A DNA stretch of 57,145 nt, counting the filler, from Basidiobolus ranarum (Eukaryota), in the NCBI GenBank assembly GCA_040143965.1. It is 2 parts of 2 records of this genome, joined end to end, with 100 filler letters (N's around TTAATTAATTAA, not from the genome) between each part and the next. Parts side by side here need not be neighbours in the genome. Positions count along the whole stretch, not along the records: positions 1 to 28,528 come from JASJQH010006989.1; 1 more part is not named here. One strand, 5' to 3'. The position numbers and the translations under genes are program-made. Position 1 is the first letter of the stretch. Every line of letters starts with the position of its first letter. The notes below the pieces were generated by a model. It saw only the letters and a list, made by a program, of their open reading frames with translations. It had not been told where the DNA came from and did no database searches. This document shows positions 10,455 to 57,145 of this stretch, in pieces.

Positions 10455-11639
10455 TTCTCTAAGCCACAATTTATTTATATATCTATAAGGTGCCACAATG
10501 CAAAATGTATAATATATGTTTTCCTCCATTTCATTACATTCCTTTACGCCTTGCGCCAAGACAAAAACGTAAACTAAGATAAAGATTTTCTGCCATTCCC
10601 TTTTCTTCCTCTATATCTAGGCCTTTGTTTTAGTTGATTTTATCTCATATATCATATGCTCAAGTACGATTTGCTGTACTATAATTACCGTAAGTCAACA
10701 GCCCAGGAAAAGATGAACATTAATTTGAATATACGCGGATAATCATTCGTAGTGAACGATCTAAAATCACTGTATACCAATATATGCCAGCTGATCATTA
10801 TGCACGTCAACATTAGTCAGAATCTATAGTCTAGATATGTACCAGTGTGGTTTAGCAACATTATAGTTAAAAACTTGGCAGCAACATAGGAAATGTTAAA
10901 GGAATACACATAGATTAAAAGAATTAGCACCAACACCAGCTATTTCTCCGATCTAGCACGCAGATGAACACATCTTATTAGTATCCAGATCACGGAACTT
11001 GGAAGTCACTATTTGTTAGCTTACAATTGGTGAATTAGAGCGTCATCTGCATGGAGGAACATGATGGTGAATTGCTCTCGGCTCGGCGGGTTACTTTACT
11101 CACGAGTTGTTCTATTCTGTAACAGGAGTAAGACTCTTCCTATACACTCTATTGAAATAGTTGTTTACCCGTTTATTGATATGCGTCGTAGAGTTCTCCA
11201 CAATGGGCCTTTCTGTGTTACCATTACATATGAATCGGCTAATATAGGTGGGTTGATTTTAATGAGGAACATTAGGAATCGAATGAGTTTTCTTTTTGTT
11301 ATTCTGTAACCTTGATTGCATCGCTATTTATCTCGTGCATGTTGCATGCACCAACGTGAAAATAGGTATGAATGTGAACATTGGGAATCTGTAGTAGTTC
11401 AACACCTTCGTTGCTAGCTTATGCATTTGCGTCAGGGATGAAGCCTATGATGGCTAGTCGTTCTCGAAGTACTCAGTTGAAATTAATATTCCATATGACA
11501 TGCAATTCGAAACACGATCATATAAAAGAAGTTTCACCCCGGGAGTTTAGGTTCCTGGTAGCTCCAATCGTTAAATCTTCTCCACTATCTTGGCGACTTT
11601 TCACTTGTCAACTAAAGGAACATATCCAACCCCATTAAG

Positions 11640-13128
11640 ATGCTGACCAAATTCATCCCCTTTGGCCTCACGCTGCTCAGTCTTTTCTCGAATATTATAG
11701 TTAGCGCCCAAACATGCCAAACACCATATATACGTCGAGAGATCCGGGAAATTTCGAAGCAAGAGTGGGATGACTTCGTGGTAGCCATTCAAACTCTTCA
11801 TTCGGGGCCATCACCCACTACATACGATAAACTAGTAGCGATTCATCTCCAGTACGTACCCACTGCTCACAGCAGCCCACTTTTTTTCCCATGGCACAGA
11901 AGATTTATGAAAGAGTTTGAACTCGCCCTTCAAAAAATCAATCCCAACGTCATCGTACCATACTGGGTAAGTGTTTCGCCTGATTAAATACAAAGTACTA
12001 CAAACTAATGGAAATCATTATTGAATTCATCAGGATTGGACCATTGATTCACAAGCTCCAGAGCAAAGTATACTTTTCCGTCCAGAATATTTTGGAGCCA
12101 GTGGTGATACAGAGTGCATCATGGATGGCCCTTTTAAGAACTGGAATATGGCAGTCCCTAAAGGTCACTGCTTAAAGCGCCGCTGGAACAAAGGTAAACA
12201 AATTGGTGCCTTATACCCGCCGGAACTTCTTGCAAAGATTTGCCAACAATCAAGGAGTTTTCAAGAGTTTCGGATTGCCATTGAAGCAGCGCCACACGCT
12301 CTGGTGCATGCTAACATCGGTGGTGATGGCGGTGATGTCAGTACTATGTGGAGTCCCAACGAGTAAGCTATTTTAATTACCTCATGTGTAACTTGATTTG
12401 ACCTAACCACTTTGACCAGTCCAATTTTCTGGGTTCATCATGCGTATGTTGATAAGATTTGGGCGTATTTCCAGAGACTCAGGCCCAATATTGGGATGAT
12501 TTATGAAGGTATCAACAACGAAAACAAAACTGTCAGCCCCACTGATACCATCGAGCCATTCGGTGTGGCAGTTAAGGATGTCTTGGACATCAGAGATGTA
12601 GGGCTATGCTACACATACAGTAATCTCGATATGTTATCCCTAAGAGGCCCCAATCCACAAAAGAATCATAATATACCTAGGTCTGTAAAGCAGGAAAGTC
12701 ACATTAAAAGAGATAACTCTGTGGGCCCGAACGACAGAACTGATGATACTAAGCTTCGAACTCCGTCAAAGGTTCCCGAGAAATGGGCCAGGATGAATGG
12801 CTTCAATATCAATGAGATACGTGCGTTGGAGGAGGAATATAATTCATTTATTCAGGATATTAATGACGATGATGATTACATCTCACCTGTTTCACTAGCT
12901 AGAAAAAATAACACCATTCAGCGCTTGATTGAAGGAACTTTAAGTAGCCTTTCGCTGCTCCAAGGGATGAAGAGCATCCCTCTACTTGATATCTCAGAAT
13001 TGCTAAATGGAAACAAATTAGTTCAGGGAGGCCAAGTGAACCATCTCGTTCACAAAGTAACTTCAGTGTTGGGTGGAGGCGGTCGCGCTCCTGGTAAAAA
13101 TTCGGGAATTTTGGGCGGAATTTTGTAG
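11640..13128 (+). CDS. Secreted tyrosinase (type-3 di-copper protein); exons 11640-11966, 12034-12362, 12420-13128
   Basis: Signal peptide, RREIR, CuA (AIH..AHSSPLFFPWHR), PYWDW, CuB (PHALVH..SPNDPIFWVHHAYVD), LCYTY motif. Confidence 0.93.
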
Positions 13129-14298
13129 AGTTTTTGAGTGAACATCTGGATAACCTCAGCGATCACCTTTTTGATCAAAATATAGTCACAGATATAGATT
13201 ATTACGCTCATTTCCTAGTTATGAGTACTTTGCATACGTCTCGCTCCCTCCCATATAATACTATCACATTCTATGAAATCATAAGTTGTTGGAAATACTG
13301 AAGATACGCCTAACTATTTATACTTCCCTAAAATATACCCCCAACTCTCCAATTTTGTTGAAGTTGATCTTTATTTTCTTTCCAAGAATAAATCTGCTAT
13401 TTACTGCCTTATTTTTAGACGACAATCGCTCCTTTTAATCACTCTTTTAGTCATCTTATCAAATTTAATCACTACAAATTAATCAAGCAAATTGAAAGAT
13501 CGATCGATCATGGATAAGGCGGTCGAATATTGCCCAGAGAAAGAAACTCCTTGCGTTCACTAGTTCACTAATTTATGGCCAATTGTTATCAAGTATTGGA
13601 GCAGCATTAAAGGTCAAATTTCAAACACTGAATTTCAGGGGCCAATTGGTTTCTCTCACTTTGTAGCAATTTCTTGAAGCGAATATTCGTTGAGGAAAAT
13701 ATCGAGATTAGTTACATTCATCGCCGATGAAGTGGCCAATTTAATCGATCTGCTATTCTACATCAACTAGGAACCAACGGTATCGGCGATCTTCCATAGG
13801 GATCCTTATCGACGCACGTCTCCAGTCTTCTTATTTCCTAATTTCATGGTAATGGGCCAGAGTAACAATGCAAAATACCATGGTTATATATATATATTAA
13901 ATACATCATTTATTGTTCAGTCCTTTTTTAGTAAATTATCCAGAATCTTGTCATTTTCGTCCATCCGCAACATCTAGTTGATACGTTCTCAGTTATTATA
14001 TAGTAAATCTACTTGGTATCCCAACTATGCAATACAAACGATACGCAAGTTTATAAGGAGGATGGCCGCCTCTCCCGATGAAGCTTTTCTTTGCCTAAAC
14101 AACTAAAGGAACTTAATTTATTCATTTTCCAACCCCTGTTTGACGTTCTCTACTATTTCACGTTAGCTACATACACTCAACGACATCGAATTTTCTTCGA
14201 GCAGGTCTCCACATACATCTCTCAACTACTCTTGTTGAACTTCACTAGTATATTGGAGTGTCGAAGCGAGAGAACGTAACCGATACCATTGACACGTC

Positions 14299-15640
14299 AT
14301 GAGCGATCCTTTTGGATACTTATGTGACTCAGATCCCAACTCCACGGTTAGGGAAACCCAAGAGACGAGAGACACATCACTTACGCCCCATGTAAATAAT
14401 AAGGCCTCAAACCTGACTACTCCAAAGAAGCGCACGTCTACACAACCGACAAGTACCTTTCTCACGGAATTTACGAAACGAAAAAATTGGCCACAAAAGA
14501 TTATATGTGGATTGAAAGATATATACTATGTTATCACGAACTCGAGTAAATTTATATTTTGCTCTCCGTCTTGTCAAGAATTAACTGGCTACTCCCCTGC
14601 GGAATTGGTAGGCCGAAATATTAGCGATTTCATTCATGTGGATGATATTGACCCGTTTATACGAGACCTAAATTGTGGTGCATTGAAAAAATCCTTCTCA
14701 TTATTTTACCGTTTCCGTAAGAAAGACGACAAATTCGTTATGTTAGAAGTCCAGTGTAGACCTTATTTCGTTGATGATTCCATTAATCCTACTTGTTTCT
14801 TCTGTAACGCGCGCCAATATCCTTCCAAAGCTAGTTCACTTTTAGACACTTTTCTTGAATTGAAAGTCGAGAATGAATTTCTCCGACGACGCCTAAAAGA
14901 ACATGGCCACATTACCGATGAGAGCAGCACACCGAGCACTTCAAGTACTGGAGAAGACTATTCCAATATCGATCCAACAACGCCTGCAGACAGTCAATCT
15001 CTCTCATATACAGTGAAGAAGTGCGATCCTAGCCAACGAAGCTCCATCGATTTACGTGGTGGCTCAGTTGAAAATCCTAGTCGAAATTCTGAAAGCGAGT
15101 CTGGTGTAGACGAAGACACACTCACTAAATTGAGAAAAAAGGTACACTTTATTAATATACCTTCTCCAAATACAATGTCCAAACTTCAAATGGGTTATTT
15201 TCATATTAATGTGGATATTGAAATCTCCATTTAAATTTGTAAACATATATTTTTAAGAAGTTCATGTATTTATTGTGTATATTTGAATATAATTAGAAAA
15301 AACTAAAGACTGACGAAGAGCAAGAACAACAAGAGCGTGCGTGTACGGAATGTGGAACTACCAAATCTCCCGAGTGGAGAAGAGGCTCTCAAGGCCCCAA
15401 AACGTAAGAGTACTGTTTATTATTATCATGTCGCGGTAAAAGCGTTCTGTACAAGTTTATCAAAGTAACTTGGATGAAGTTCTCCATCGATATGGTCATT
15501 TTAGTTTTATGTTATGATGGGATTTCATGGTCTTCTATGCACGGATTTTGGCCTTTACTGACTAAATTTTCCATTCTAGACTTTGCAATGCATGTGGTCT
15601 ACGATGGGCCAAAAAATCCAAGCATAAGCAACATTCATAA
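14299..15640 (+). CDS. wc-2: White collar-2-like transcription factor (PAS + GATA zinc finger); exons 14299-15141, 15297-15403, 15580-15640
   Basis: [11 protein letters not shown] before the PAS domain ([28 protein letters not shown]), [18 protein letters not shown] coil, and spliced [32 protein letters not shown] (C-x2-C-x18-C-x2-C). Confidence 0.9.
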
Positions 15641-25615: not shown

Positions 25616-27278
25616 ATGTCTGATAAACGTAAAGCATCACCTCCACCCACTGGAGGTATACTGATCAAACGTCAAAAACCAGAAGAACTGCCTGAAAATG
25701 CTGTTGCGATCAAAGGCAAAGATGGATCTGTCATTCAAACTGTAAGTGCCCAATAAACTCCGGATTGATACTTGAAGTCGGTGTTTAGTATATTGATTCA
25801 ACATGTGATTCCTAGGTCAAGCGAACCTCGGGTCTTCAAGCACCTATTATGTTATTAAATGGCCATAAGGTATTTTTTTCTTCTCGCATGAGGATTTTTC
25901 TTCGTTGAAATTAATCAAATTTATATAGGGTGAAGTTCTTACATGTAAATTTGATCCTTCTGGAGAACACGTAGCTTCTGGAGCTTTCGATGGCGACATA
26001 TGTAAATCCACTTTATCTTTTTTATTTTGTTTATATACATATTAATCCTTGGGATTTAGTTTTATGGAATACTTATGGTGATTGCGTTAACTACGGAGTC
26101 CTTAAAGGGCATACCAGCGCTGTTCTGGAAGTTCAATGGTCTCAAGATTCAAAGTATTTTTTAGTTCCTTAAATTCAAGAGAATGGCGTCCATGTACTTA
26201 CGGTTATATTTTCAGAAATATTTATTCAGCTAGTGCCGATAAAAGTGTTGGAATATGGGATGTAAATACCGGAGTCCGTGTTAAAAGATTTAGAGGACAC
26301 AACTCTTATGTGAACTCATGTTCTCCACAACATAAATTCTCAGGCTCTAATGTGGTAGTTAGTGGAAGTGACGACAGAACTGTGAAAGTAAGTGTTTGTT
26401 TGTTCTCAAGCAATTCAGCACACCACCTTACAATTGTAATATCAGATATGGGATATTCGACAGAAGAATCCAGTGGATACATTCGAACAAGATTACCAGG
26501 TAACCGCCGTCACTTTCAGTGAAGCAGGTGACATGGTTTTCGCTGGAAGTTTGGATAATAAAATTACAGTAAGTATATCCAACGCATTGCTGCATCACTT
26601 CGGTATATTAATGGTGCTGATTGTAATAGGCTTGGGATGTCCGTAAGAAAGAGATCGCGTACGTTTTGGAAGGCCACGAAGACACAATTTCTGGTATCCG
26701 ACTTAGTCCAGATGGTTCCTACCTCCTATCTAATGGAATGGATAACACAGGTACCCTCATTACACTAATAATTACTATCAAAGGGAGATATAGCATACTA
26801 ATTAACCGACTCTTGATTGACAGTAAGAATATGGGATGTTAAGCCATTTGCTCCTGCCAATCGTATGCTTAAGATTTTCGAAGGTTGGTCATGTATTTCG
26901 AAATATCGAGTCTTGATAATCGTCCTTTTATCCATCAGCCGGTGTTAATTTGGTTGAATTATATTAGGTGCGCCCCAAGGCTTTGAGAAGAATCTCATCA
27001 AGCCTGCTTGGTCTCCTGATGGTGATAGGATTGCTTGCGGTAGTGGTGATAGAACCGTTGTAGTGTGGGATGTTACTACTCGCAGAATCCTCTACAAATT
27101 ACCTGGACATAAGGGATGTGTTAATGAAGTTGACTTTCACCCACGTGAACCAATTCGTAAGAATCTTATTTTCTTATTCACTGAAGCTATTTTCACCTGA
27201 GCTAACATCTTTCATCTAGTTGTTTCTGGTAGTACCGATAAATCTTTATTCCTTGGCGAGATATCTGCCAGTAATTGA
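25616..27278 (+). CDS. SNRNP40: U5 snRNP 40-kDa WD40 protein (SNRNP40/Spf38), multi-exon
   Basis: Spliced KRTSGLQAPIMLLNGHKGEV, WNTYGDCVNYGVLKGH, LLSNGMDNTVRIWDVKPFAP, FEKNLIK, LYKLPGHKGCVNEVDFHP, LFLGEI. Confidence 0.93.
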
Positions 27279-27439
27279 TTCGCTTGCTATGTTTAGTTTT
27301 ATATCTGTAAAGCGGGGTTTTTACTCTTACAATATAAACTTGTCCTTAAATAGATTGTTACTCAATTTCCATTCCTTCCACCCAAAAATATGATAATAAT
27401 TCTTTTTAAATATCAAAGTTTTGTTGTACTATGTATATG

Positions 27440-28290
27440 TGCATAAGAATAGCCCAAATATCTTAAGAGTCTTCTTAACCATTATGTTTCTTTTGCTGCT
27501 TCACAGGCAGTGATGTATTCTGCTTCTGTTGTTGAAAGTGCTATGGTAGGTTGTTTCTTTCAATTCCAAGAAATAGCTCCATTATAGCAAATAAATTAGT
27601 ATCCTATTGTAGATCTCCTGTCTTCAATGTTGCTTCCCCATCTGCATCTAAATATTCCATCAGAAAAAAGTTTGATCCAGAATATGTGTATTTTGAGCAC
27701 AGATCCATGGTACCCTTCACATATCTGAAAATCTGCTTAACTGCTATGATTTGATCAGATCCATAATTTTCAAGATATTAGTACATAACTCCCATAGAGT
27801 TTGCATTACCTGGCCATGCTTCAATCATGATATACATCAAACTACTATCCATAGAATGATAAGGATATTTCTGTCTTTCATTTGAATCCAAGAATGTGTG
27901 CTATGTGCTATTTTTGGTCAAGTCAACACTTTTCTCCATTAGGATAGATACTGATTACATTCTTTCACTTTAAACATCTTGAGTATATCTAGGATATACT
28001 TAGATTGGCTTAAAGGCATTGTTTTGGTAGTTCTATCTATCTTAATTTTGATTCCAAGATAGTATATCAGTTCATCAAGATCTGTCATGATTCTGAACTT
28101 GGCATACTTATCCACTGCAATTGGAATTCTTTTATTATTAGATTATGACATCATATCTGCTGTGCCATCCTTTCTTAGCAATCATGTGCTAGTTCATCCA
28201 GGTTACCTTATATAAAAGTCATGTTCTTTGGAATATTCCATGAAACCTAACCAATTGTATCATCCCACAGATAGTATATTTCCACCAAGA
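27440..28290 (-). mobile_element. Degenerate Ty1/copia LTR-retrotransposon fragment (RT C-terminus + RNase H), pseudogenised
   Basis: Minus-strand translations: DLDELIYYLGIKI..LSQSKYILDILKMF; PYHSMDSSLMYIMIEAWPGNA; AVKQIFRYVKGT; DRRSTIGY; GAISWN*KKQPTIALSTTEAEYITACEAAKE. Several stops and frameshifts. Confidence 0.93.
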
Positions 28291-28528
28291 TCTTCCATGA
28301 AAGGTCACCTGATCATCCTTACATCATCCCCCTTTGTACAGGTCCTTGTAGTGCCCAACACCCAAAACTTAAACTTGCCACAGTAAAATCCCTATTCAGT
28401 ATATTATGTTTCACCCTGCAATATCTATTGGGAAAATATGGGCTGTTTGGAGGAACTTTAGAAAAGTGGAGTTGTGAATAGCTTTGTGAGATAATTATTT
28501 ATTGACCAGAAATTAAGCATTTATACAT

Positions 28529-28628
28529 NNNNNNNNNNNNNNNNNNNNNNNNNNNNNNNNNNNNNNNNNNNNTTAATTAATTAANNNNNNNNNNNNNNNN
28601 NNNNNNNNNNNNNNNNNNNNNNNNNNNN
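28529..28628. other. Assembly gap / artificial contig linker (N44-TTAATTAATTAA-N44)
   Basis: Symmetric N runs around a 12-mer that puts stop codons in all six frames; total 100 bp. Confidence 0.97.
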
Positions 28629-31409
28629 ACTAGCACCAGTCACAGCTTGCTGAAGACGAATGATTTGTTTATGAAGGGTAGGGTTTTGGGCATCAATACG
28701 GTGAGCAGACTTAAGGGCCTTGAGGGCGAGAAGAAGCTTGCTTTGTCTAATGTAAATCTCAAATCCAAGGAGATGGGTTTCAATTCTATTACCGGCCAAC
28801 TCTTGAAGGGGAGTAAGGAATTGAAGGGCCTCGCCTAAAGGATTCTCAGTGCTAGCAAGTTTATCGCCATTAGGGTCTTCGTCTACCTTCTTGGTTGCTT
28901 GGTTCTTATGACTCTCTTCCTTGACTTGAGCTTTCTTGGATTCGGCTTCTTGTTGAGCCTTAAGAGCAGCCTTGCGTTGCTTGTTCTTGTATTTTTTGAT
29001 ATCAGAAGGAGTCATGTTAGCAAAGTTGGCCTGGTCAATCTCCTCTTGAGTTTTCTTTGGATTATCATAAAGATAGAGATAGTGCTTGACTGCGTTCTGG
29101 GCAGCACGGAAGTAGTAAGGATGAGATCTTAGTTGATCCTCAAGACGAAGAAGACCAATATAAGCGCGGATGGTCATTTTACGTAAACAGTATGTGTGGA
29201 AATCAAACTGATCATCGGTAAACTCATTGAAGTGCTTCTGAACTTGGTGATAGCGTTTGAGCGCTTTACCAATTTGGTTTTGTCTAGCAAAGCTTTCACC
29301 TGACTCTAAGGCAAACCACATACATTGCATATCTACAAGATCATTCAACGGATCTGTGCTATCAGCTCTGGTGAAAAGGACGATGGTCTTTTCAGCATCG
29401 GACACCTGATCGTTTCTTAACATATACTTGGTACACTTGGAGTTGATGCATCTATCTTGAAGATCGAGTTCACGGCCCTCATTCAAACACTTCGAAGCTC
29501 CCTCGAAGTCACCACTGTGCTTAAGAATACGGCCCTTGGTCATGTACAGTTCAACCATTGTAGGTGTGTGCTCAATGGCTGTGTTAATATACTCCAAGGC
29601 TTTCTCAGACTGTTGAGTGCGATCGAAGTGCTGAGCAAGGTAAAATAGACCCCAAAGATAGGCCGTAGGGGGCTCTTTAGCTTCTATAAGAGACATCAGT
29701 AAACATGGACAGATAAGAGATTGTGAACCAAGGTAACAATACCTGCTTCAGGTGTAAATTTGCCACACTCGAGATAGGTTTTCATGTAACCCTCCAAAAG
29801 ATCTTCGATAATCTTGACCTTTTCACTATCGGTGTATAGATCCTTAAGGTTGACAAACAAAGAAGGAACTCCCTTTCTCAACTGTTGTTGCATATAAACA
29901 TCTACTTGATGCTTGAATTGCTCTCCTAAAGTGGTATTACAATGCTTAGTACACCAATAGCTGTACATATACGAATGGCCTAATAGCACATACCATCAAC
30001 CAAAGACAATGGGTATCTCTTAAGAAGATTGGATCTGGGGTAGGTGCCAACCAACTCTTGGATGAGCTCAAGGGCCTGGGTCTTCTCATCGCTAGAGAGG
30101 TTATCTGAAGAAATTATTAGCAGTTATTTTCCATTGAGTATATCAAATTATCTTACCCTTCTTGTATCCTTTGCAGGCCAAAAGACCGTCAATATAAGCT
30201 CTACAATCGGAGTTTTCCTGGATAAGATCCCGGTAAGCTTTCTCGGCTTCCTCTAATCTTTCGAGTTGAAGATAAAATTGTGCTGTAATAATAATTAAGA
30301 GTTAAGTTTGACATCAGAGACGTTCTAGTTCAATAAGAGCCTACCTCTCTTTTCTTGTAGAGAACGACGATCGGCTACATCTTCTTCTATTTCCTTCAAA
30401 TGCTCCAAGGCCTTTTCAATATCACCACTTTCCTCGATGATCATGTTTTTGTATAGGACCATTTCGCTATGCTCGAAGTCGATGCCCTTGGGTCTTCCCT
30501 GTTTATTCGTACATTATATTTAAGTCTATGGGTATCTCATCTTTAACATTGGCGACTGGACGTACCTTCAAAGTCTCCTCATAAGAAGTGAGTACGTTGA
30601 GTGCCATGTCGTAGTTCTTTGATAAATGATAAGAGATGGCGAGGGAAATCCAGAAAGCTCTGTTTTGAGGTCTAAGCTCAAGGAGTTGGTGAGTGGCATC
30701 CTAAGAAGATTCATCGTTGAGATATAATGATTGTAGCCAAAATAGGGAAAGTAGTATCCTACACTGAATCCTTCATAGTTGCGCATTTGAATATGTAATA
30801 GCGAATAATCACGCAAAATTTGAAGATTTTCCTAAAGAAAATTCATTAGTCATATGCGCTACAACAAGTTACCTTGTAAAACAACGTACTTTGTCATATT
30901 TTAGAGCATGAGTATAACATTTCAAAGCTTCTTCGTAGTTTTTGTCGGATCTGTACAACAAACCGAAAACATGCCAACCTTACAGGGAAAGAAAGGTAAG
31001 CATGAACTCAGAAAACAGAAAGTTAAGAGGAGTTACTATGTACAAATGTGACTTCTGAGATTGTTTCGGAGACCCTTACGGACGAAATCATAGGCTTCTT
31101 CCTTCCTGTCCAAATGGTTCAAAAAAAGACCCTTCATGGCCAAAGTTTCTAGAAAGAGGTTTTGATTGATGTAAGTTGAAAAAACTTTGAAACAAGATTA
31201 TTGCTCGAAATTGAGTATACCTCCATGGTTAGGGAACTTCTTGAGAATCTGTTCGGCAGTCTTAAGACCCTTTTTATATTGTCTATGCTCATAAAATTTC
31301 TAGAGAATACAGTTGAAACATTTAGGAGCGTGACTAAATGAGTGGTTTTGTGGAATATAAGTACCAAAATAGTTTTGAAAACTGTTGTCTCCCTCTGAGG
31401 TAGATCCAT
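28629..31409 (-). CDS. NAT1: NatA N-terminal acetyltransferase auxiliary subunit (TPR protein), multi-exon, 3' end lost in the gap
   Basis: [107 protein letters not shown]. Confidence 0.95.
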
Positions 31410-43815: not shown

Positions 43816-44028
43816 TCAAGTTATTTGCCATTGTATCCTTGCACTTGGAGTTAGCTACTATATTTGTATTCCCTCAATCGAATGTGCTTAGTTTGTCTCT
43901 GAGAAATCATGATTAAAGTGCAGTGAGGCCAATTCATTGGTTAAAGTAAACAGCATCCATTTATTAGGAAAATTTCTTTGTTATCACATCCAAGTCAAAA
44001 GAGATTTCGATAGGTTTTGTGGATATTG

Positions 44029-46722
44029 ATGTTTCGCGGAAGATATATCAGAGTCAACCAGTTGGACTGCGTCAAAACTAGTTTCCATACCACCAAGATA
44101 CATCCAAGGGGAAAATTTATTCAACTATGTTGTCGTTACAATACCACTTCTACTGAAACGTTAGAAGCGAGTTTACAAACCAGGAATTTCAACAATGCTT
44201 GGACCAGTTTTAACCAACTTCTCAACCTTGGACAAAGTAATCAGATAGAGGCAAATCAATACTCCCGACTATTCCGACTACTTGTTTCCAACTCAAAAGG
44301 TGTTGCAAACGACAAAGTAAAGGGTCAGAAGATTTTGGATTGTATGCGAACGAATCGACTTCGGTTTACAAGTTGTGAGGAATACGCTCCATTAATTCTC
44401 TTTCAAGCAAAGAATGATAGATTAGACTTGATAAAACTAATTCTGGCCGAAATGAAAGCTCAAGGCATTGAGCCAGATTTATTTATATATAACCAGTGGA
44501 TAAAGGGTTCTCTAACTCGGAGCTTGACCTCTGGACTGGAGGTGCTAAAGTATATGGAGGCTTGTGGAGTGAAGCCAGATTTTTCCACCTTCAATATTTT
44601 GCTTAAATCACCTAAAGTGAGAAAAGATAGTCGAATACTATCGAAAATAGGGGATAAAATGCTCGCTATGCAAGTAAAAAAGGGAGTTCGAGAATACAAC
44701 ATTTTAATCGAAAGCCATTTACAGTTTCTAGAGGCAAAGAAAGTGGAAGAGATCTTTCAGGAGATGAAACAAGCTAACGTTTCTCCAAATTCCATGACTT
44801 TTAACTTGATGATTCGATTGTATGGAAAGTTGAGAAATCCCGAAAAGGTTCTCTCTCTGTATGATCTTATGAAGGAAAATGATTTTCCACTTAGTTCGTT
44901 TTCCTACGGTTACGTCGCAGTTTCGTTAGCTGAACTCTCGAAAATTGATGAAGCGTTGCAGATGTTGGAGGAAGTGGACTTACTGGGGTTCCAATTAGCC
45001 GAGGGCGCTTATGAAGCTCTTATCCGCGAATTTCTTTATCATTCACGATCAGTTGAGGCTATTAAGCTGTACCAAAAGGCGCTCGGGTCGAAGATCTCGT
45101 TGTCGGTTAAAACGTTCACGCAGCTAATGCATCAGCATTTGAGAGAGGGGAACCCTAAAGAAGCCATGCGGATATATGAAGACTTTATTGAACAGGGATC
45201 CATTCCCGACAGTAAAGTATTTACGGTTCTTATTGAAGGTCAGAATGAATTTGATAGTAGCGATCAAATGCAGGTTCTATGGCGAGAAATTAACAAGTAT
45301 GGAGTACAGATGGATGACTATCTCTCTAATACAATTCTACATGAATGTATAAGAAATTCGTGGACTGACTTGGCCATTGAAGTATTTGACAAGACCCTTT
45401 GTCTGGGAAGTAAAATCGAGTGCAACATATACCGAGGTCTTCTTCGACTTTATCAAAAAGATGACCGATCTGATGCCATCAAAACGATACTGAGAAGCTT
45501 GAGCACTCCCCGGACCGCTTCTAGCAAAAAAGCCAGTCAGTTGGTGTCACCGCTTAATATAGTAACATCCACGGTATTAATCCGCTTTTTCACCGAGAGA
45601 TTTGATTTAGATGGAGTTCGTGCAGTCCACACCCTATTGCAGAGAGATGGTGTTCAGCTCGACAACTTCGCCTATAACACCCTCTTGAATGGCTATTCCA
45701 AATGTGGAGACTTTGAAGCAGCCAAAAAGACTTTCACTCAGTATCTGGAGGAAGGCACCCGTTTTCGACCTGATACTGTCGCATTCAACATTATGATGCG
45801 AGGCTACACCATTAGAGATATGTACACCCAGGCCATTGACTTACTCGAAGTGATGGACAACTTGGGGATATCACCAAATACCCTAACATTCAATACTCTG
45901 ATTGATGGATGTATCAAATGTGGAGACCTTGCTCGAGCCGAAAATCTCGCTCAGAGGATGGAGAAGCTGGGCATTCGCAAGAGCACTGTTACATTCAACG
46001 AGTTCATCTTTGGTTACATGTCGGAGTCCAATATCGACGCAGCCAAGGATACTTTCAAGAAAATGATCCAACTTGGAATTCGACCAAACATTGTGACCTT
46101 CAGTTCGCTTATTCACGGCTACGTAAACCACGCTCGTTTCACGGAGGCTAATGAATGTTTGGATGAGATGAGAAAGAGAGGAATCTCACCCACTATTGAG
46201 ACATACAACAATTTGATGAGCGGATATGTCAAGGCCTATCGGATAGACGATGCGCTCAAAGTATACGATCAACTAAGCTCTCTTCCACAAGGCCAGGAAA
46301 TCACTCCCACCGCAGTCACTTACAGTATACTGATGAATTGCTGGGGATTTGCCAAGCAACATCAAAATGTACTGGCGGTGTGGAAGAAGTTGAAAGCGCA
46401 ACCAAACTTCACTCAAATGGATTTAGCAGGGTCAATAAGTGTGCTTTTGGATTCTTGTGGATCGAATGCTGATTTCAAAGAACTGCAAGACCGGTGGCTT
46501 GAAGTAAATTCCCTCAATATTTCTTTAAGTGAGAATAACCACATATCGTATTGGGAGGCTTTAGTCCGCTGTGATAGACCAGAGAAGGCTGTTGAAGGGT
46601 TAGAAGCATGGTGTCGTAACAATGGCACGGTAAGTCGCAAGACGAGTGAGGTGATGCTGAAGCTTATTCGAGGTAGGCGGTTACTTAAAAGGATTCGGCG
46701 TTGTCTAAAAAATAATAGTTGA
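44029..46722 (+). CDS. Pentatricopeptide repeat (PPR) protein, probably mitochondrial, intronless
   Basis: Many 35-aa repeats (e.g. PNTLTFNTLIDGCIKCGDLARAENLAQRMEKLGI; PNIVTFSSLIHGYVNHARFTEANECLDEMRKRGI); Arg-rich N-terminus. Confidence 0.95.
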   Translation: MFRGRYIRVNQLDCVKTSFHTTKIHPRGKFIQLCCRYNTTSTETLEASLQTRNFNNAWTSFNQLLNLGQSNQIEANQYSRLFRLLVSNSKGVANDKVKGQKILDCMRTNRLRFTSCEEYAPLILFQAKNDRLDLIKLILAEMKAQGIEPDLFIYNQWIKGSLTRSLTSGLEVLKYMEACGVKPDFSTFNILLKSPKVRKDSRILSKIGDKMLAMQVKKGVREYNILIESHLQFLEAKKVEEIFQEMKQANVSPNSMTFNLMIRLYGKLRNPEKVLSLYDLMKENDFPLSSFSYGYVAVSLAELSKIDEALQMLEEVDLLGFQLAEGAYEALIREFLYHSRSVEAIKLYQKALGSKISLSVKTFTQLMHQHLREGNPKEAMRIYEDFIEQGSIPDSKVFTVLIEGQNEFDSSDQMQVLWREINKYGVQMDDYLSNTILHECIRNSWTDLAIEVFDKTLCLGSKIECNIYRGLLRLYQKDDRSDAIKTILRSLSTPRTASSKKASQLVSPLNIVTSTVLIRFFTERFDLDGVRAVHTLLQRDGVQLDNFAYNTLLNGYSKCGDFEAAKKTFTQYLEEGTRFRPDTVAFNIMMRGYTIRDMYTQAIDLLEVMDNLGISPNTLTFNTLIDGCIKCGDLARAENLAQRMEKLGIRKSTVTFNEFIFGYMSESNIDAAKDTFKKMIQLGIRPNIVTFSSLIHGYVNHARFTEANECLDEMRKRGISPTIETYNNLMSGYVKAYRIDDALKVYDQLSSLPQGQEITPTAVTYSILMNCWGFAKQHQNVLAVWKKLKAQPNFTQMDLAGSISVLLDSCGSNADFKELQDRWLEVNSLNISLSENNHISYWEALVRCDRPEKAVEGLEAWCRNNGTVSRKTSEVMLKLIRGRRLLKRIRRCLKNNS

Positions 46723-50543: not shown

Positions 50544-51699
50544 CCTCGCCATCCTCACAACTCGCAATTTAGATTCTAGGCCAAATTAAGAAGTTCAGCG
50601 ACAACTGCAAACACATCCAATATAGAACATGACTTGGTGAACTTTAATAGCCAATTATCCAGCCAAGAGTACAATTTGGTTTGTGGGGGATTTATTTTCC
50701 GTGATAAGATAACTAAACAAACATTTATATGCAAACAAAATACCGAGAAGTGATATCAATATGCTAGCCCAATTGAAACTATTTCTGGGAAAGTCATTGA
50801 CGAATGAAATTCTTAGTCGCTTTTACCTTGAATTGGTGGAAACTCTTCTAACTGTTGGAATTCTGGAATACTAACTATAGTGACAGAAATACCTTAATAA
50901 AGAGCGGTATATTATCTAAAATAGCCTAATAAAGAAGGCGGTAAAACATCCCATTTCCAACATCAATTCCGGTGAAGCTATAAATGATATATGGTTTAAT
51001 ATACCTCGGCTAATATACCTTAATTGCCTTGACCTTACCATAGCTAAAGTTGACCTCATCGATCAATTAGCCTGCATATCATGACTGAATCTCTCTCTCA
51101 TCAAGTTCGTTGATTACCGAAGTGTAAGAGTAATCATGATATGTGAGGTGGTAATTCGCCTTATTGGTTGTCATTTAGAGGTATCGGGATCGAAACCATC
51201 ACCCAACGTTACTGTTAAAGATAAGAACGAAAAGCCAAGTTATGCCAGAACATCGCCAATCTCCATGGCGCTGGGCGCAGGCTGATTGGTGCGAAGATTG
51301 TAATTACAGTTTTAATATGAATATGGCTTAGGGGCTAAGCGTATCACTATGTGTTAAAATAAAGTGTGCAATCTGATAGTAATTGCTCAGCAGAATGCAT
51401 ACCAGTACCGCATACCGCATGATTATGGAATTACGCCATCTGCTAAGCTTGTATGGAAGGTGATCACTTTGTGTGAGAATCTTTGCTGAAAGATAACAGG
51501 CTCGGCAGGGATGCAAGTGACGTTTTACTGAATCTAGTTAAACCCTAACCCTGGCCGCCTGCTCCCATCTTTTTACTCATTCAGGAATGTGAATCACCCA
51601 AGGTTCCGTATATAAGCAGCTCAAGGACTTCTCCAGAGCCCATTGTGTTATCAGACTGTAAAAATTTAAAAGCTCCCTAACTATCTCATAATCCCTAAA

Positions 51700-52419
51700 A
51701 TGTTTGACAATAACGTTATCGTTGCCACTCAACACGTGATTGATCACTATTTCACATCAAAATCCAAGGACACATTCAATCACCCTGGACACTATACAAA
51801 GGAGGCCATCCTATCTAGCAAGTCAATACCGCAAACAGTCCTAACCAAATCATCACCCAATCTCGAGAGCCAAATCAAAGCCCACATCATCAGTATCACA
51901 TCCAACACTGTCAACCATTTGTTTGAGTGTGCAGAGCCCAACTCGGCCAATCCTTTTGTTCCCGACGAACTACCCAAACTTGACGCATTCATCGCACGAG
52001 TATTCCGTCGTTCCAACCTGCCTCTCAACAATCTTTTGACCTCATTGCTGTATCTCGTTCGCCTCAAAGAGTATCATCCCTCCTGCAAAGGCACACTCGG
52101 TTCTGGACATCGATTGTTTCTTGCTGCATTGATGATGGCCAACAAATATCTTCACGATGGAGCCTACCACAACAAAACGTGGTTCAAAATAGTGGATGGA
52201 TTCTACGAACTACAAGATTTAAATCAAATGGAGTCCGAATTCCTCAGCCTGTTGAAGTTTGAACTGGTGGTGAAGAAAGAAGAGTGGGTCGAGTTCATTG
52301 ACATCATGGACGGGAAGCTCACACGCAGTTGGGCCCGCAAAGGCATCCAGGGACCAAGTGGCTATCTCTTCAGACAAATGACTAGCCAGAAGACTGCACA
52401 CATGAACCAACTCATCTAA
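51700..52419 (+). CDS. Pho85-type cyclin (Pcl1/Pcl2-like), intronless
   Basis: LPKLDAFI..VFRRSN..LLTSLLYLVRLK, HRLFLAALMMANKYLHD..YHNKTW, LNQMESEFLSLLKFEL; TATATAA at 51609. Confidence 0.92.
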   Translation: MFDNNVIVATQHVIDHYFTSKSKDTFNHPGHYTKEAILSSKSIPQTVLTKSSPNLESQIKAHIISITSNTVNHLFECAEPNSANPFVPDELPKLDAFIARVFRRSNLPLNNLLTSLLYLVRLKEYHPSCKGTLGSGHRLFLAALMMANKYLHDGAYHNKTWFKIVDGFYELQDLNQMESEFLSLLKFELVVKKEEWVEFIDIMDGKLTRSWARKGIQGPSGYLFRQMTSQKTAHMNQLI

Positions 52420-52709
52420 ACCCTCTGCCTCTGCCCTATTGTATTAATATCATCAGCCATCATCTATTGTAATATTCTCCTCTTATGTATATTAGAGCCA
52501 TCAATTGATTTGTATATACAGTCATCTATATATTGGAAACCTTCATGGAATAAACCACTTTTGAATTATCTCATTTACAGATGTTTAATTTGTTATTTAT
52601 CTGTTTGTTATTTGGAAAAACTGGAGATAATGAAAAGAAGGGAGGTGAGTTCCGATAGCCGCCAACAATTATCTACTCGGTTATAAAAATACAAATAGGC
52701 CAATGTTTA

Positions 52710-55466: not shown

Positions 55467-56336
55467 TCAACGAACTAATCTCTTGACTAAAGGTCGGTTG
55501 CGTTCTGTCATTATCTTTTTGCTGCAACGACTCAATAGCATCAAGAATTTCTGTTGTTTATCCGAGGGGACTTGGGAGTTGAAGAGCGCCTCCAAAAGGG
55601 ATTTATCTAAAACCGGTGGTGATGCCAGGGCAGATTGGCTGATCTGGGGTGCATGCAAATGCAGTTTCGTCCTCAACATGGTGATTGATTGATTGTCAAG
55701 TTTCTGTTGATTGATATTGGTGTTTTCCATCATGTTGGCCAGATCATCGACATACAATGAGACCGAGGTCTTTGCTGATTTGAGTTGCTCTGGTGGGGGC
55801 GTGATCATTCGAGATCTAGAGGAAGGGGCTGTGGATAACTTGGGCAGCAGTAGCAGATGATCCCCAAACTTCTGAAGATCCAACGGATGAACCATCAAGT
55901 CGAACTTGCTCAGAAAAAGGAACTCCATCTCCAGCCCATTCAAATCCTTCAAGTGGATGCCAGCAACCTGAGCAAAGCGTGAGTTGGCGAAGTAAACATC
56001 CGAGCAATATTTGGAAGCAACCACGATCCCAGTGACCAACAGACGGTGGATATTATAAGAGTTGATGACAAATGGGGCATTTGTTTCTTTGGAGTATTGA
56101 ACGATCCGATCAAGGTATATCAGGGTGCTCAAGAGACACTCGTTGCTGAAGGGCGTATACTTCAGAATGCGCAGAAGATAGTCTTCTACACTTATAGATG
56201 GAATGGAGTTGGAGTGGAAGCAAGTTAAACTCTTTGCTTCACAAGAATCGTTGATATGTATCATTGACTTTAGCATGCGAGAAACCAAAGAAATCGTTTG
56301 CTTCACGGGAAGCGTTGCAATATCAAAATGAGTCAT
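55467..56336 (-). CDS. Pho85-type cyclin (Pho80/Pcl6/Pcl7-like), intronless
   Basis: FHSNSIPSISVEDYLLRILKY, LIYLDRI, INSYNIHRLLVTGIVVASKYCSDVYFANSRFAQVAG, LNGLEMEFL. Confidence 0.93.
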   Translation of the reverse strand: MTHFDIATLPVKQTISLVSRMLKSMIHINDSCEAKSLTCFHSNSIPSISVEDYLLRILKYTPFSNECLLSTLIYLDRIVQYSKETNAPFVINSYNIHRLLVTGIVVASKYCSDVYFANSRFAQVAGIHLKDLNGLEMEFLFLSKFDLMVHPLDLQKFGDHLLLLPKLSTAPSSRSRMITPPPEQLKSAKTSVSLYVDDLANMMENTNINQQKLDNQSITMLRTKLHLHAPQISQSALASPPVLDKSLLEALFNSQVPSDKQQKFLMLLSRCSKKIMTERNRPLVKRLVR

Positions 56337-57145
56337 CGAATATCAGCAAATAAAGTTATATGAATGTATTAAGCTACAAGCAAAGGTCAGGAAAGAGTAT
56401 GTTCAAAGAGGTAGCGATCTAAGGACTATTGTATTTGTCCAAACGGATGCTGGACCCATTTATACTTCCGAGGATATTGGCGACATGGCACTCTTTCCAC
56501 CAAATCCAGTGGTGAATCTAGTCTCAGTTCCAATTTGAATGACATCAAAATTAACCTAATGATTAAACGATAGTGAATGGTAGCTACCTCAGTGTAACTA
56601 GCTATGAAGTTGAATGGTTATCTATGATTGGGTAAATGGATCGACTCCATTCTGGGTAATATGCAAAGCTTGGGTTTGCTCTCTAGTCTCCCCCCAAAGA
56701 TAACTTCCTTCTTTTGGATCTAACCGCAGTGCGTCGGTTGGATTCTGGTACTATTCAAATCTCCCCAAATACCCCCAAACACCCCAAGTTTCACAACAAA
56801 TATTTATGCATGGAATTGTAGACACTGCCAACAGATCCTACCAGAACATCAGAGGTTACCCCCAACCTCTTGCGAGTGAATGGGGAGAATCAGCTAGCCT
56901 CTGGATCTTTCTGTTTAGAAGAGTTTGATTGAAAATTTTCTTAAAAAAAAGGTTCGCGTATACATGGACCATCCACTAAAATGAGCACCGATATGTGTAA
57001 ATATATGTGGTAGCTTTCATAATCATACGAACTAGAAAGGTCCAGACCTCCTGCAAGCTCCACCTAGATCAAGATGCTGATTGAAGGAAAGCTTCCCAAA
57101 AACCAGGGCAACCCTGGGGAGACTATCGCGAGTTGGTATCATATC

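Follow-up and report, generated by a model that had tools for sequence, protein, structure and literature searches.

A decayed copia fragment at the end of a contig

The window, by which we mean the whole stretch of DNA that was analysed, has 57145 bases and consists of two contigs joined through an artificial 100-base spacer. The contig after the spacer has 28517 bases. A first, sequence-only reading of this DNA had treated the end of the locus described here as a gap. It is a contig boundary rather than a sequencing gap, and the CpG-free transposon relic sits at the very end of the first contig (contig A). The features of the locus are as follows.

26106..27278, plus strand: 3' exons of a WD40-repeat gene (PF00400) that flanks the relic and has normal CpG content; its stop codon is 27276-27278
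27279..27436, no strand: 158-bp interval from the WD40 stop codon to the end of the RNase H homology, without an LTR
27315..28528, no strand: CpG-free stretch with 0 CG in 1214 bp, beginning 37 bp past the WD40 stop codon and reaching the end of contig A
27437..27667, minus strand: copia-type RNase H, frame -1, with 3 in-frame stops; the best conserved part, up to 59% identical to relatives
27640..27951, minus strand: segment between reverse transcriptase and RNase H, frame -2, from tblastn, with 2 in-frame stops; it holds the TGG, TAA, CAG and CAT codons discussed below
27951..28250, minus strand: C-terminal part of a copia-type reverse transcriptase, frame -3, from RVT_2 and tblastn (28250-27957 in the latter), with 4 in-frame stops
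28251..28528, minus strand: presumed N-terminal half of the reverse transcriptase, placed from the RVT_2 profile coordinates and cut by the contig end
28529..28628, no strand: artificial spacer (N44 + TTAATTAATTAA + N44) joining two separate contigs, not a gap within the element

By homology, the stretch is a decayed, inactive and 3'-truncated Ty1/copia fragment, comprising the C-terminal half of the reverse transcriptase (RT) and RNase H on the minus strand. In the minus-strand translation, with X placed at stops, Pfam RVT_2 was matched over profile positions 142-237 of 244 (E=0.0053, 16.8 bits, below the gathering score of 31.6). A phmmer search with one relic frame against 1.84 billion protein representatives gave 15577 matches at E<=0.001. 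When the top 150 representatives were aligned to the DNA by tblastn, collinear matches appeared in three frames, with E=3e-32 for P0228 and E=7e-25 for P0135, and the initial identification of a copia RT/RNase H relic held up. The RT segment aligns to residues 1189-1285 of P0228 (tblastn). The close matches of the relic carry PF07727, and the best relatives carry PF00665 and PF13976 as well. The presumed N-terminal half (28251..28528) is heavily decayed and gave no tblastn match at E<=1e-3. Overall, the 279 homologous codons contain nine in-frame stops, and the reading frame has been shifted at least twice.

RT is followed by RNase H along the minus strand (28250 to 27437), and the position of the integrase would fall beyond the contig end. 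Past the last homology of the relic, its relatives extend for another 79-90 Pol residues plus an LTR; the alignments end at residue 1294 of 1373 in P0195 and at residue 1467 of 1557 in P0228. Because this exceeds the 158 bp available before the WD40 stop codon, the relic is truncated at its 3' end, at most 158 bp from that codon, and no LTR was found. On these grounds, and because blastn found no repeat of it in the window, we filed it as a fragment and not as an element. It resembles Ty1/copia elements (Pseudoviridae) in having an RVT_2-type RT with RNase H behind it, at the C-terminal end of Pol. On the other hand, it differs from them in being a fragment, with no LTR, with neither integrase nor gag in the contig, and with the stops and frameshifts described above.

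Identities to relatives ranged from about 23% to 64% (tblastn, among the 150 representatives listed). The nearest proteins are only 30-60% identical, and the named ones among the top 10 representatives come from a green alga, a pseudoscorpion and plants, none of them being a Basidiobolus element. With the nearest relatives so divergent and from such distant hosts, no copia family could be assigned. Further copies of the relic were sought at several levels. Within the window, blastn recovered the relic alone, and so did tblastn with 48 long copia proteins. No close copy was found by phmmer in the 1.84 billion representatives, among the matches listed. In a set of 5.8 billion proteins, identity reached 66% at best, over 75% of a 77-aa query, and in metagenome contigs 61% among the best 80 of 146 relatives; neither search yielded a copy of the family. 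Pfam detected no transposable-element (TE) domain in 124 ORFs of the window (10 long ORFs and 114 further ORFs of at least 75 aa). Apart from the relic, then, no transposon could be recognised in the window, and the evidence for CpG loss, like the repeat-specific hypermutation proposed in the sequence-only reading, comes from one locus of 1.2 kb.

Two other proteins of the window bear on the host. A TauD/GBBH-type dioxygenase is 83% identical to its counterpart in B. meristosporus and 80% identical to that in B. ranarum, with other fungi at 51% or less. The PPR protein P0001 (902 aa) has one close named relative, from B. meristosporus, at 49% identity, the next being at about 20%. These relatives agree with the earlier view that the host is an early-diverging fungus and place it in the Basidiobolus lineage. 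The B. meristosporus homologues of the two proteins are each found on a contig of 70218 bases, a coincidence that suggests synteny.

Extent and footprint of the CpG void

The claim that no CG occurs between 27315 and the spacer was borne out by counting. The relic (27315-28528) has a GC content of 0.335, at which base composition predicts 33.5 CG, and it has none. At the window's own CpG observed/expected ratio (O/E) of 0.707, corresponding to 1532 CG window-wide, approximately 23.7 would be expected, and the Poisson probability of finding none is about 5e-11 by hand calculation. The CpG O/E of the relic is thus 0, with a 95% upper bound of about 0.09 by our own calculation. The last CG before the void lies at 27313 and the next one at 28657, in the other contig, giving a CG-free interval of 1344 bp with the 100-bp spacer included.

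The second-longest CG-free interval in the window is 317 bp (52336-52653), and kilobase voids in non-repeat DNA, which the sequence-only reading had named as evidence against its own interpretation, do not occur in the window. Among 547 sliding windows of 1.2 kb, O/E was at least 0.41 wherever the relic was not overlapped (mean 0.73, sd 0.14). Of 1129 sliding windows of 300 bp, 23 contained at most one CG, and 19 of these lay inside the relic. All DNA outside both ORFs and the relic had an O/E of 0.69, compared with 0.74 in ORFs of at least 100 aa, and the 19 non-ORF segments of at least 600 bp ranged from 0.47 to 1.07. The left flank (26520-27314, 795 bp) contains 26 CG at an O/E of 0.83, in line with the earlier statement that the flanking genes have many CG dinucleotides. 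The deficit is therefore local to the relic on its left side; the right side is the contig end.

The dinucleotides into which CpG would be converted were raised. TpG had an O/E of 1.35-1.36 in the relic (count 88) against 1.12 in the window, and CpA had an O/E of 1.30 (count 89) against 1.11, whereas GpC stood at 0.98. The excess is equal on both strands (88 versus 89). By our own arithmetic, the surplus of TpG and CpA over the window baseline amounts to about 28 dinucleotides, compared with about 24 missing CpGs. Loss of CpG together with a symmetric excess of TpG and CpA and normal GpC is the textbook footprint of CpG transitions, as the sequence-only reading had proposed for this relic.

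The same reading had distinguished the pattern from repeat-induced point mutation (RIP) of the classical ascomycete kind, and the indices agree. Classical RIP, of the Neurospora type, is RID-dependent and converts CpA to TpA; its usual thresholds are TpA/ApT above 0.89 and (CpA+TpG)/(ApC+GpT) below 1.03. The first index was 0.76 in the relic and 0.82 in the window, the second 1.64 and 1.23. Both point away from CpA-to-TpA mutation, and classical RIP is not indicated. The relic shares with it the point-mutational inactivation of a repeat by C-to-T transitions, and differs in these opposite indices and in a GC content that is only mildly lowered (0.335 versus 0.37-0.42).

Arginine codons, related elements and simulated decay

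The three homologous frame segments contain 14 Arg codons, every one of them AGA or AGG, as had been claimed, while the long ORFs of the host use CGN in 105 of 159 Arg codons (66%). To compare individual positions, the residues aligned to each relic codon were gathered from up to 150 relatives. The sequence-only reading had singled out four codons as CpG-transition products at positions where copia RT normally has Arg, and all four are present: CAT at 27858, TGG at 27816, TAA at 27780 and CAG at 27735 (each being the top coordinate of a minus-strand codon). The support for an ancestral Arg is uneven. Arg makes up 35% of the relatives at the CAT column (18 of 52, the proposed YR->YH change), 91% at TGG, 57% at TAA and 52% at CAG. 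One CpG transition is enough to turn CGG into TGG or CAG, but none turns CGA into TAA directly; TAA takes two steps, and the four examples are only partly sound.

Ten columns had Arg in at least 40% of relatives. At five of them the relic has AGA or AGG, and at the others TGG, CAG, TAA, ATA and ATG. The ATA and ATG columns point to AGR ancestors, so that three of the ten columns (TGG, CAG and TAA) are possibly CGN-derived and seven look AGR-derived. On this comparison of codons, some CGN codons have been lost through CpG transitions. From the roughly 3:7 split between CGN and AGR, the element was probably already CGN-poor, in part, before this copy died, and part of the CpG poverty would then be older. 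More generally, 36 of 118 conserved columns were changed in the relic. G>A on the coding strand was the commonest unambiguous single-step change, with nine cases and no unambiguous C>T. CpG context was found in four of these nine, a number that agrees with CpG transitions but is too small to decide.

To see how the relic compares with similar elements, we took the best 80 metagenome loci of the 146 relatives with a related RNase H. After 28 of the 80 had been dropped for their span, 52 copia loci with an RT-RNase H span of 700-2000 bp were left. Their CpG O/E ranged from 0.09 to 1.03 around a median of 0.23, intactness being disregarded, and none of the 52 had zero CpG. Strong CpG loss is common for copia elements of this kind in many hosts, and the relic stands at the extreme end.

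We utilized simulations to quantify what rates and times the void implies. The model had kappa 2, an AT bias of 1.9 tuned to the GC content of the relic, no indels and uniform rates. At equilibrium, CpG O/E was 0.21 with a 10-fold multiplier on CpG transitions, 0.115 with a 20-fold multiplier and 0.068 with a 40-fold multiplier. The corresponding probabilities of finding zero CpG in the relic, P(0), were 0.0008, 0.02 and 0.1. These simple simulations indicate that CpG transitions would have outpaced other transitions by a factor of about 25 or more. Such a rate ratio exceeds the approximately 10-fold one at which O/E is 0.21, close to what is quoted for humans.

When the relic itself was evolved onward with CpG hypermutability switched off, CpGs returned quickly. 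By 0.02 time units (about 0.025 substitutions per site), 2.6-2.9 CpGs were back and P(0) was 0.06-0.08; by 0.05 units there were 6.4-6.6 CpGs and P(0) was at most 0.003. By 0.1-0.2 time units, 11-20 CpGs were expected, and 0 of 300 runs remained free of CpG. A CpG-free state thus refills within about 0.03-0.06 substitutions per site in the simulation. By contrast, when host ORFs were evolved under the model, the observed density of nine stops in 279 codons was reached only at about 0.2-0.3 substitutions per site. Because refilling is so much faster than the decay of the relic, the simple simulations indicate that the CpG purge would have been sustained through most of that decay. Two candidate histories were rejected under this simple model: a single ancient burst, after which CpGs would have regenerated, and arrival in a CpG-free state followed by drift, which does not explain the data.

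Probable methylation decay, its alternatives and their meaning

Decay of a silenced repeat linked to 5-methylcytosine (5mC) is the best reading of the relic, and we hold it with moderate confidence; methylation would most likely be the cause of the CpG loss. A silenced copia repeat would have been kept CpG-methylated by a maintenance system of the DNMT1/UHRF1 type. Its 5-methylcytosines would have been deaminated to thymine, leaving strand-symmetric CpG-to-TpG/CpA transitions, and the loss would have continued until, by its own decay, the locus had no site left to be methylated.

In vertebrates and plants, methylated transposons are known to lose CpG through 5mC deamination. The relic resembles these cases in a CpG deficit local to the transposon, in the reciprocal and symmetric excess of TpG and CpA, and in normal GpC. 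A further likeness is a toolkit of the DNMT1/UHRF1 type in the closest named relative, B. meristosporus. In the tabulated part of Funabiki et al. (PMC10538959), this species is listed with DNMT1 (ORX99839), two Dim2-type enzymes, UHRF1, HELLS and a class II CDCA7-like protein; the 5mC column of the supplementary table is empty for it. The relic differs from the known cases in that its depletion is total (O/E 0, versus the 0.2 quoted for humans, PMC13297926) and goes beyond that of all 52 related copia loci.

Among fungi, extracts from the literature offer CpG-methylated TEs in Basidiomycota, Tuber, Phycomyces, Rhizophagus and Linderina for comparison (PMC11258239, PMC8647823). According to passages in Lax et al. 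(PMC11258239), nearly all 5mC in Phycomyces lies on repeats, and the same is stated there for Linderina (Zoopagomycota) with reference to Mondo et al. 2017. An excerpt from Dallaire et al. (PMC8647823) describes high CG methylation on most TE loci in Rhizophagus. The same passages of Lax et al. (PMC11258239) describe 5mC as scarce in Mucoromycota and Zoopagomycota overall, a point that we count against the best reading. Two others counted against it come from the relic: only four of the nine unambiguous G>A changes lie in CpG context, and seven of the ten Arg-rich columns look AGR-derived. In addition, a multiplier of at least about 25-fold, set against the 10-fold one that gives an O/E of 0.21, is no less compatible with an active process than with passive deamination.

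Such an active process would be a homology-triggered, CpG-aimed and RIP-like hypermutation, in which the repeat was mutated enzymatically and not by slow 5mC deamination. We regard this as unlikely, though to be taken seriously; it stays a rival because the rate ratio is very high. The CpG loss is complete, and even multipliers of 20-fold and 40-fold leave the low equilibrium P(0) values given above. There are also precedents. The portions of two papers on Pucciniomycotina that bear on this point (Horns et al. 2012, PMC3318451; Amselem et al. 2015, PMC4352252) report a C-to-T bias at CpG and TpCpG in TEs of Microbotryum, Melampsora and Puccinia, occurring without a RID gene and associated with an enzyme of the DNMT1/Masc2 class. 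In the latter source the CpG signature extends to Tuber (PMC4352252), and the former describes a TpCpG RIP-like pattern in Pucciniomycotina (PMC3318451). The DNMT1 and the two Dim2-type enzymes listed for B. meristosporus (in the same table, PMC10538959) would be candidates for a comparable role.

The relic shares the CpG C-to-T bias in a fungal TE with the Pucciniomycotina system. However, the signature there was defined, in the same extracts, on alignments of many copies (PMC3318451, PMC4352252), whereas the relic is one copy with no trinucleotide preference, in a host that is not a basidiomycete. The products of TpCpG mutation were not clearly enriched among the relic trinucleotides (TTG 27.2 versus 22.1 per kb; CAA 19.8 versus 22.9). 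Since CpG regeneration excludes a single ancient burst, an active process would have to recur. Furthermore, a second copy, which would demonstrate present or past repetition of the sequence, was not found in the window, the protein sets or the metagenome contigs. The broader proposition that the Basidiobolus lineage subjects its repeats to an unusually strong, continuing and enzyme-driven RIP-like CpG hypermutation via DNMT1/Dim2-type enzymes, in place of passive 5mC decay, is rather doubtful.

The element might also have been nearly CpG-free at insertion, coming from a methylating lineage or by horizontal arrival, with nothing CpG-specific happening afterwards at the locus. This would accord with the Arg-rich columns, seven of which appear AGR-derived and three CGN-derived while host genes use 66% CGN, and with the low median O/E of 0.23 in related copia regions, for which intactness was disregarded. 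Nevertheless, we consider it quite improbable. The copy has decayed by about 0.2-0.3 substitutions per site, as judged from its nine stops in 279 codons and at least two frameshifts, and the 11-20 new CpGs expected by 0.1-0.2 time units are missing, an outcome that none of the 300 runs produced. Nor was any of the 52 related loci free of CpG.

Editing of the minus-strand cDNA by an APOBEC-like cytidine deaminase before integration is very improbable. It could account for coding-strand G>A being the commonest unambiguous change, at nine against no C>T, but that count depends on which amino-acid changes lend themselves to scoring and is biased accordingly. The products are strand-symmetric (TpG 88, CpA 89), and the coding strand is richer in G (230) than in C (177), not poorer. 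According to the simulation, changes made before integration could not have prevented CpGs from reappearing in the relic as it decayed.

That the void arose from chance, low complexity or an assembly artefact is scarcely credible: although the relic lies at a contig end in a window made of two joined contigs, it runs on without a break from a normal gene, its sequence is complex and has recognisable protein homology in three frames, and zero CpG is hardly to be expected at the window's CpG level (Poisson P about 5e-11).

In most discussions, early-diverging fungi figure as rich in 6mA and poor in 5mC. Few of them have been mapped directly for 5mC, those named in the extracts being Phycomyces, Rhizophagus and Linderina (PMC11258239, PMC8647823). 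The sequence-only reading had called repeat defence in these fungi poorly described. This is partly true, but the sections of the literature cited above already report 5mC on repeats in Linderina, Phycomyces and Rhizophagus (PMC11258239, PMC8647823) and CpG bias in fungal TEs (PMC4352252, PMC3318451). For Basidiobolus, our literature search, whose coverage was incomplete, found no paper with a 5mC map or with TE CpG decay.

The phenomenon itself is well known, and we regard the relic as fairly ordinary: a real and clean signature, here from a fungal lineage that has received little study. One locus of this kind is suggestive and would not surprise a specialist. A CpG-free relic beside a CpG-normal gene is nevertheless cheap evidence of the sequence-only kind, and it suggests that CpG-directed methylation, or a related mutagenic defence, has long been active on repeats in the Basidiobolus lineage. 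If confirmed genome-wide, the observation would add a further deep branch of the fungi to those with TE-targeted CpG methylation and provide a rate estimate for the mutagenic cost of CpG methylation. Should an enzyme-driven RIP-like defence prove to be true, it would mean that mutagenic repeat defence predates Dikarya.

Make-up of the window and its genes

Two contigs were joined to make the window, and it would be unsafe to treat them as neighbours. The second, contig B, spans 28,517 bp, the same as the length on record for the contig of the window's own PPR protein. The artificial spacer between the two contigs carries TTAATTAATTAA, which gives a stop in every frame. The features considered here are as follows.

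11616-13125, +: tyrosinase-domain exons
14293-15231, +: PAS-domain ORF (PAS_3/PAS_9)
28529-28628: artificial spacer, N44 + TTAATTAATTAA + N44
28629-57145: contig B
32908-34194, -: dioxygenase gene with TauD/GBBH-N domains
44014-46719, +: PPR protein gene
51670-52416, +: cyclin-domain gene (PF08613)
55470-56342, -: cyclin-domain gene (PF08613)

The tyrosinase-domain exons adjoin the PAS-domain ORF, and the PF08613 cyclin domain occurs in two separate genes less than 5 kb apart. The dioxygenase's B. ranarum relative is named trimethyllysine dioxygenase by one source. Since the best B. meristosporus relatives of the dioxygenase and of the PPR protein both lie on a contig of length 70218, the comparison suggests that synteny has been kept for this pair, despite very different identities to those relatives (83% for the dioxygenase versus 49% for the PPR protein).

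A second CG-free interval

The second longest CG-free interval in the window, 317 bp at 52336-52653, lies downstream of a cyclin (PF08613) gene, in a region where 8.8 CG are expected per 300-bp window. An 88-aa ORF overlaps it, for which a Pfam search returned no match. Because its length is near that given by chance spacing of the window's 1532 CpGs, the interval is probably without meaning.

Related copia elements elsewhere

Several top protein representatives matched from the copia relic, P0120 and P0125 among them, are gene models in which one RNase H fragment is repeated in tandem as many as 10 times, as in a 2851-aa pseudoscorpion model. Such gene models, probably annotation artefacts over repeat arrays, raise phmmer scores artificially. 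Among the best 80 of 146 metagenome relatives (loci L001-L080), 52 contigs gave CpG observed/expected figures for the related RT-RNase H region, and these show strong CpG depletion there too, with a median of 0.23 and a minimum of 0.09. Copia elements poor in CpG are thus common.
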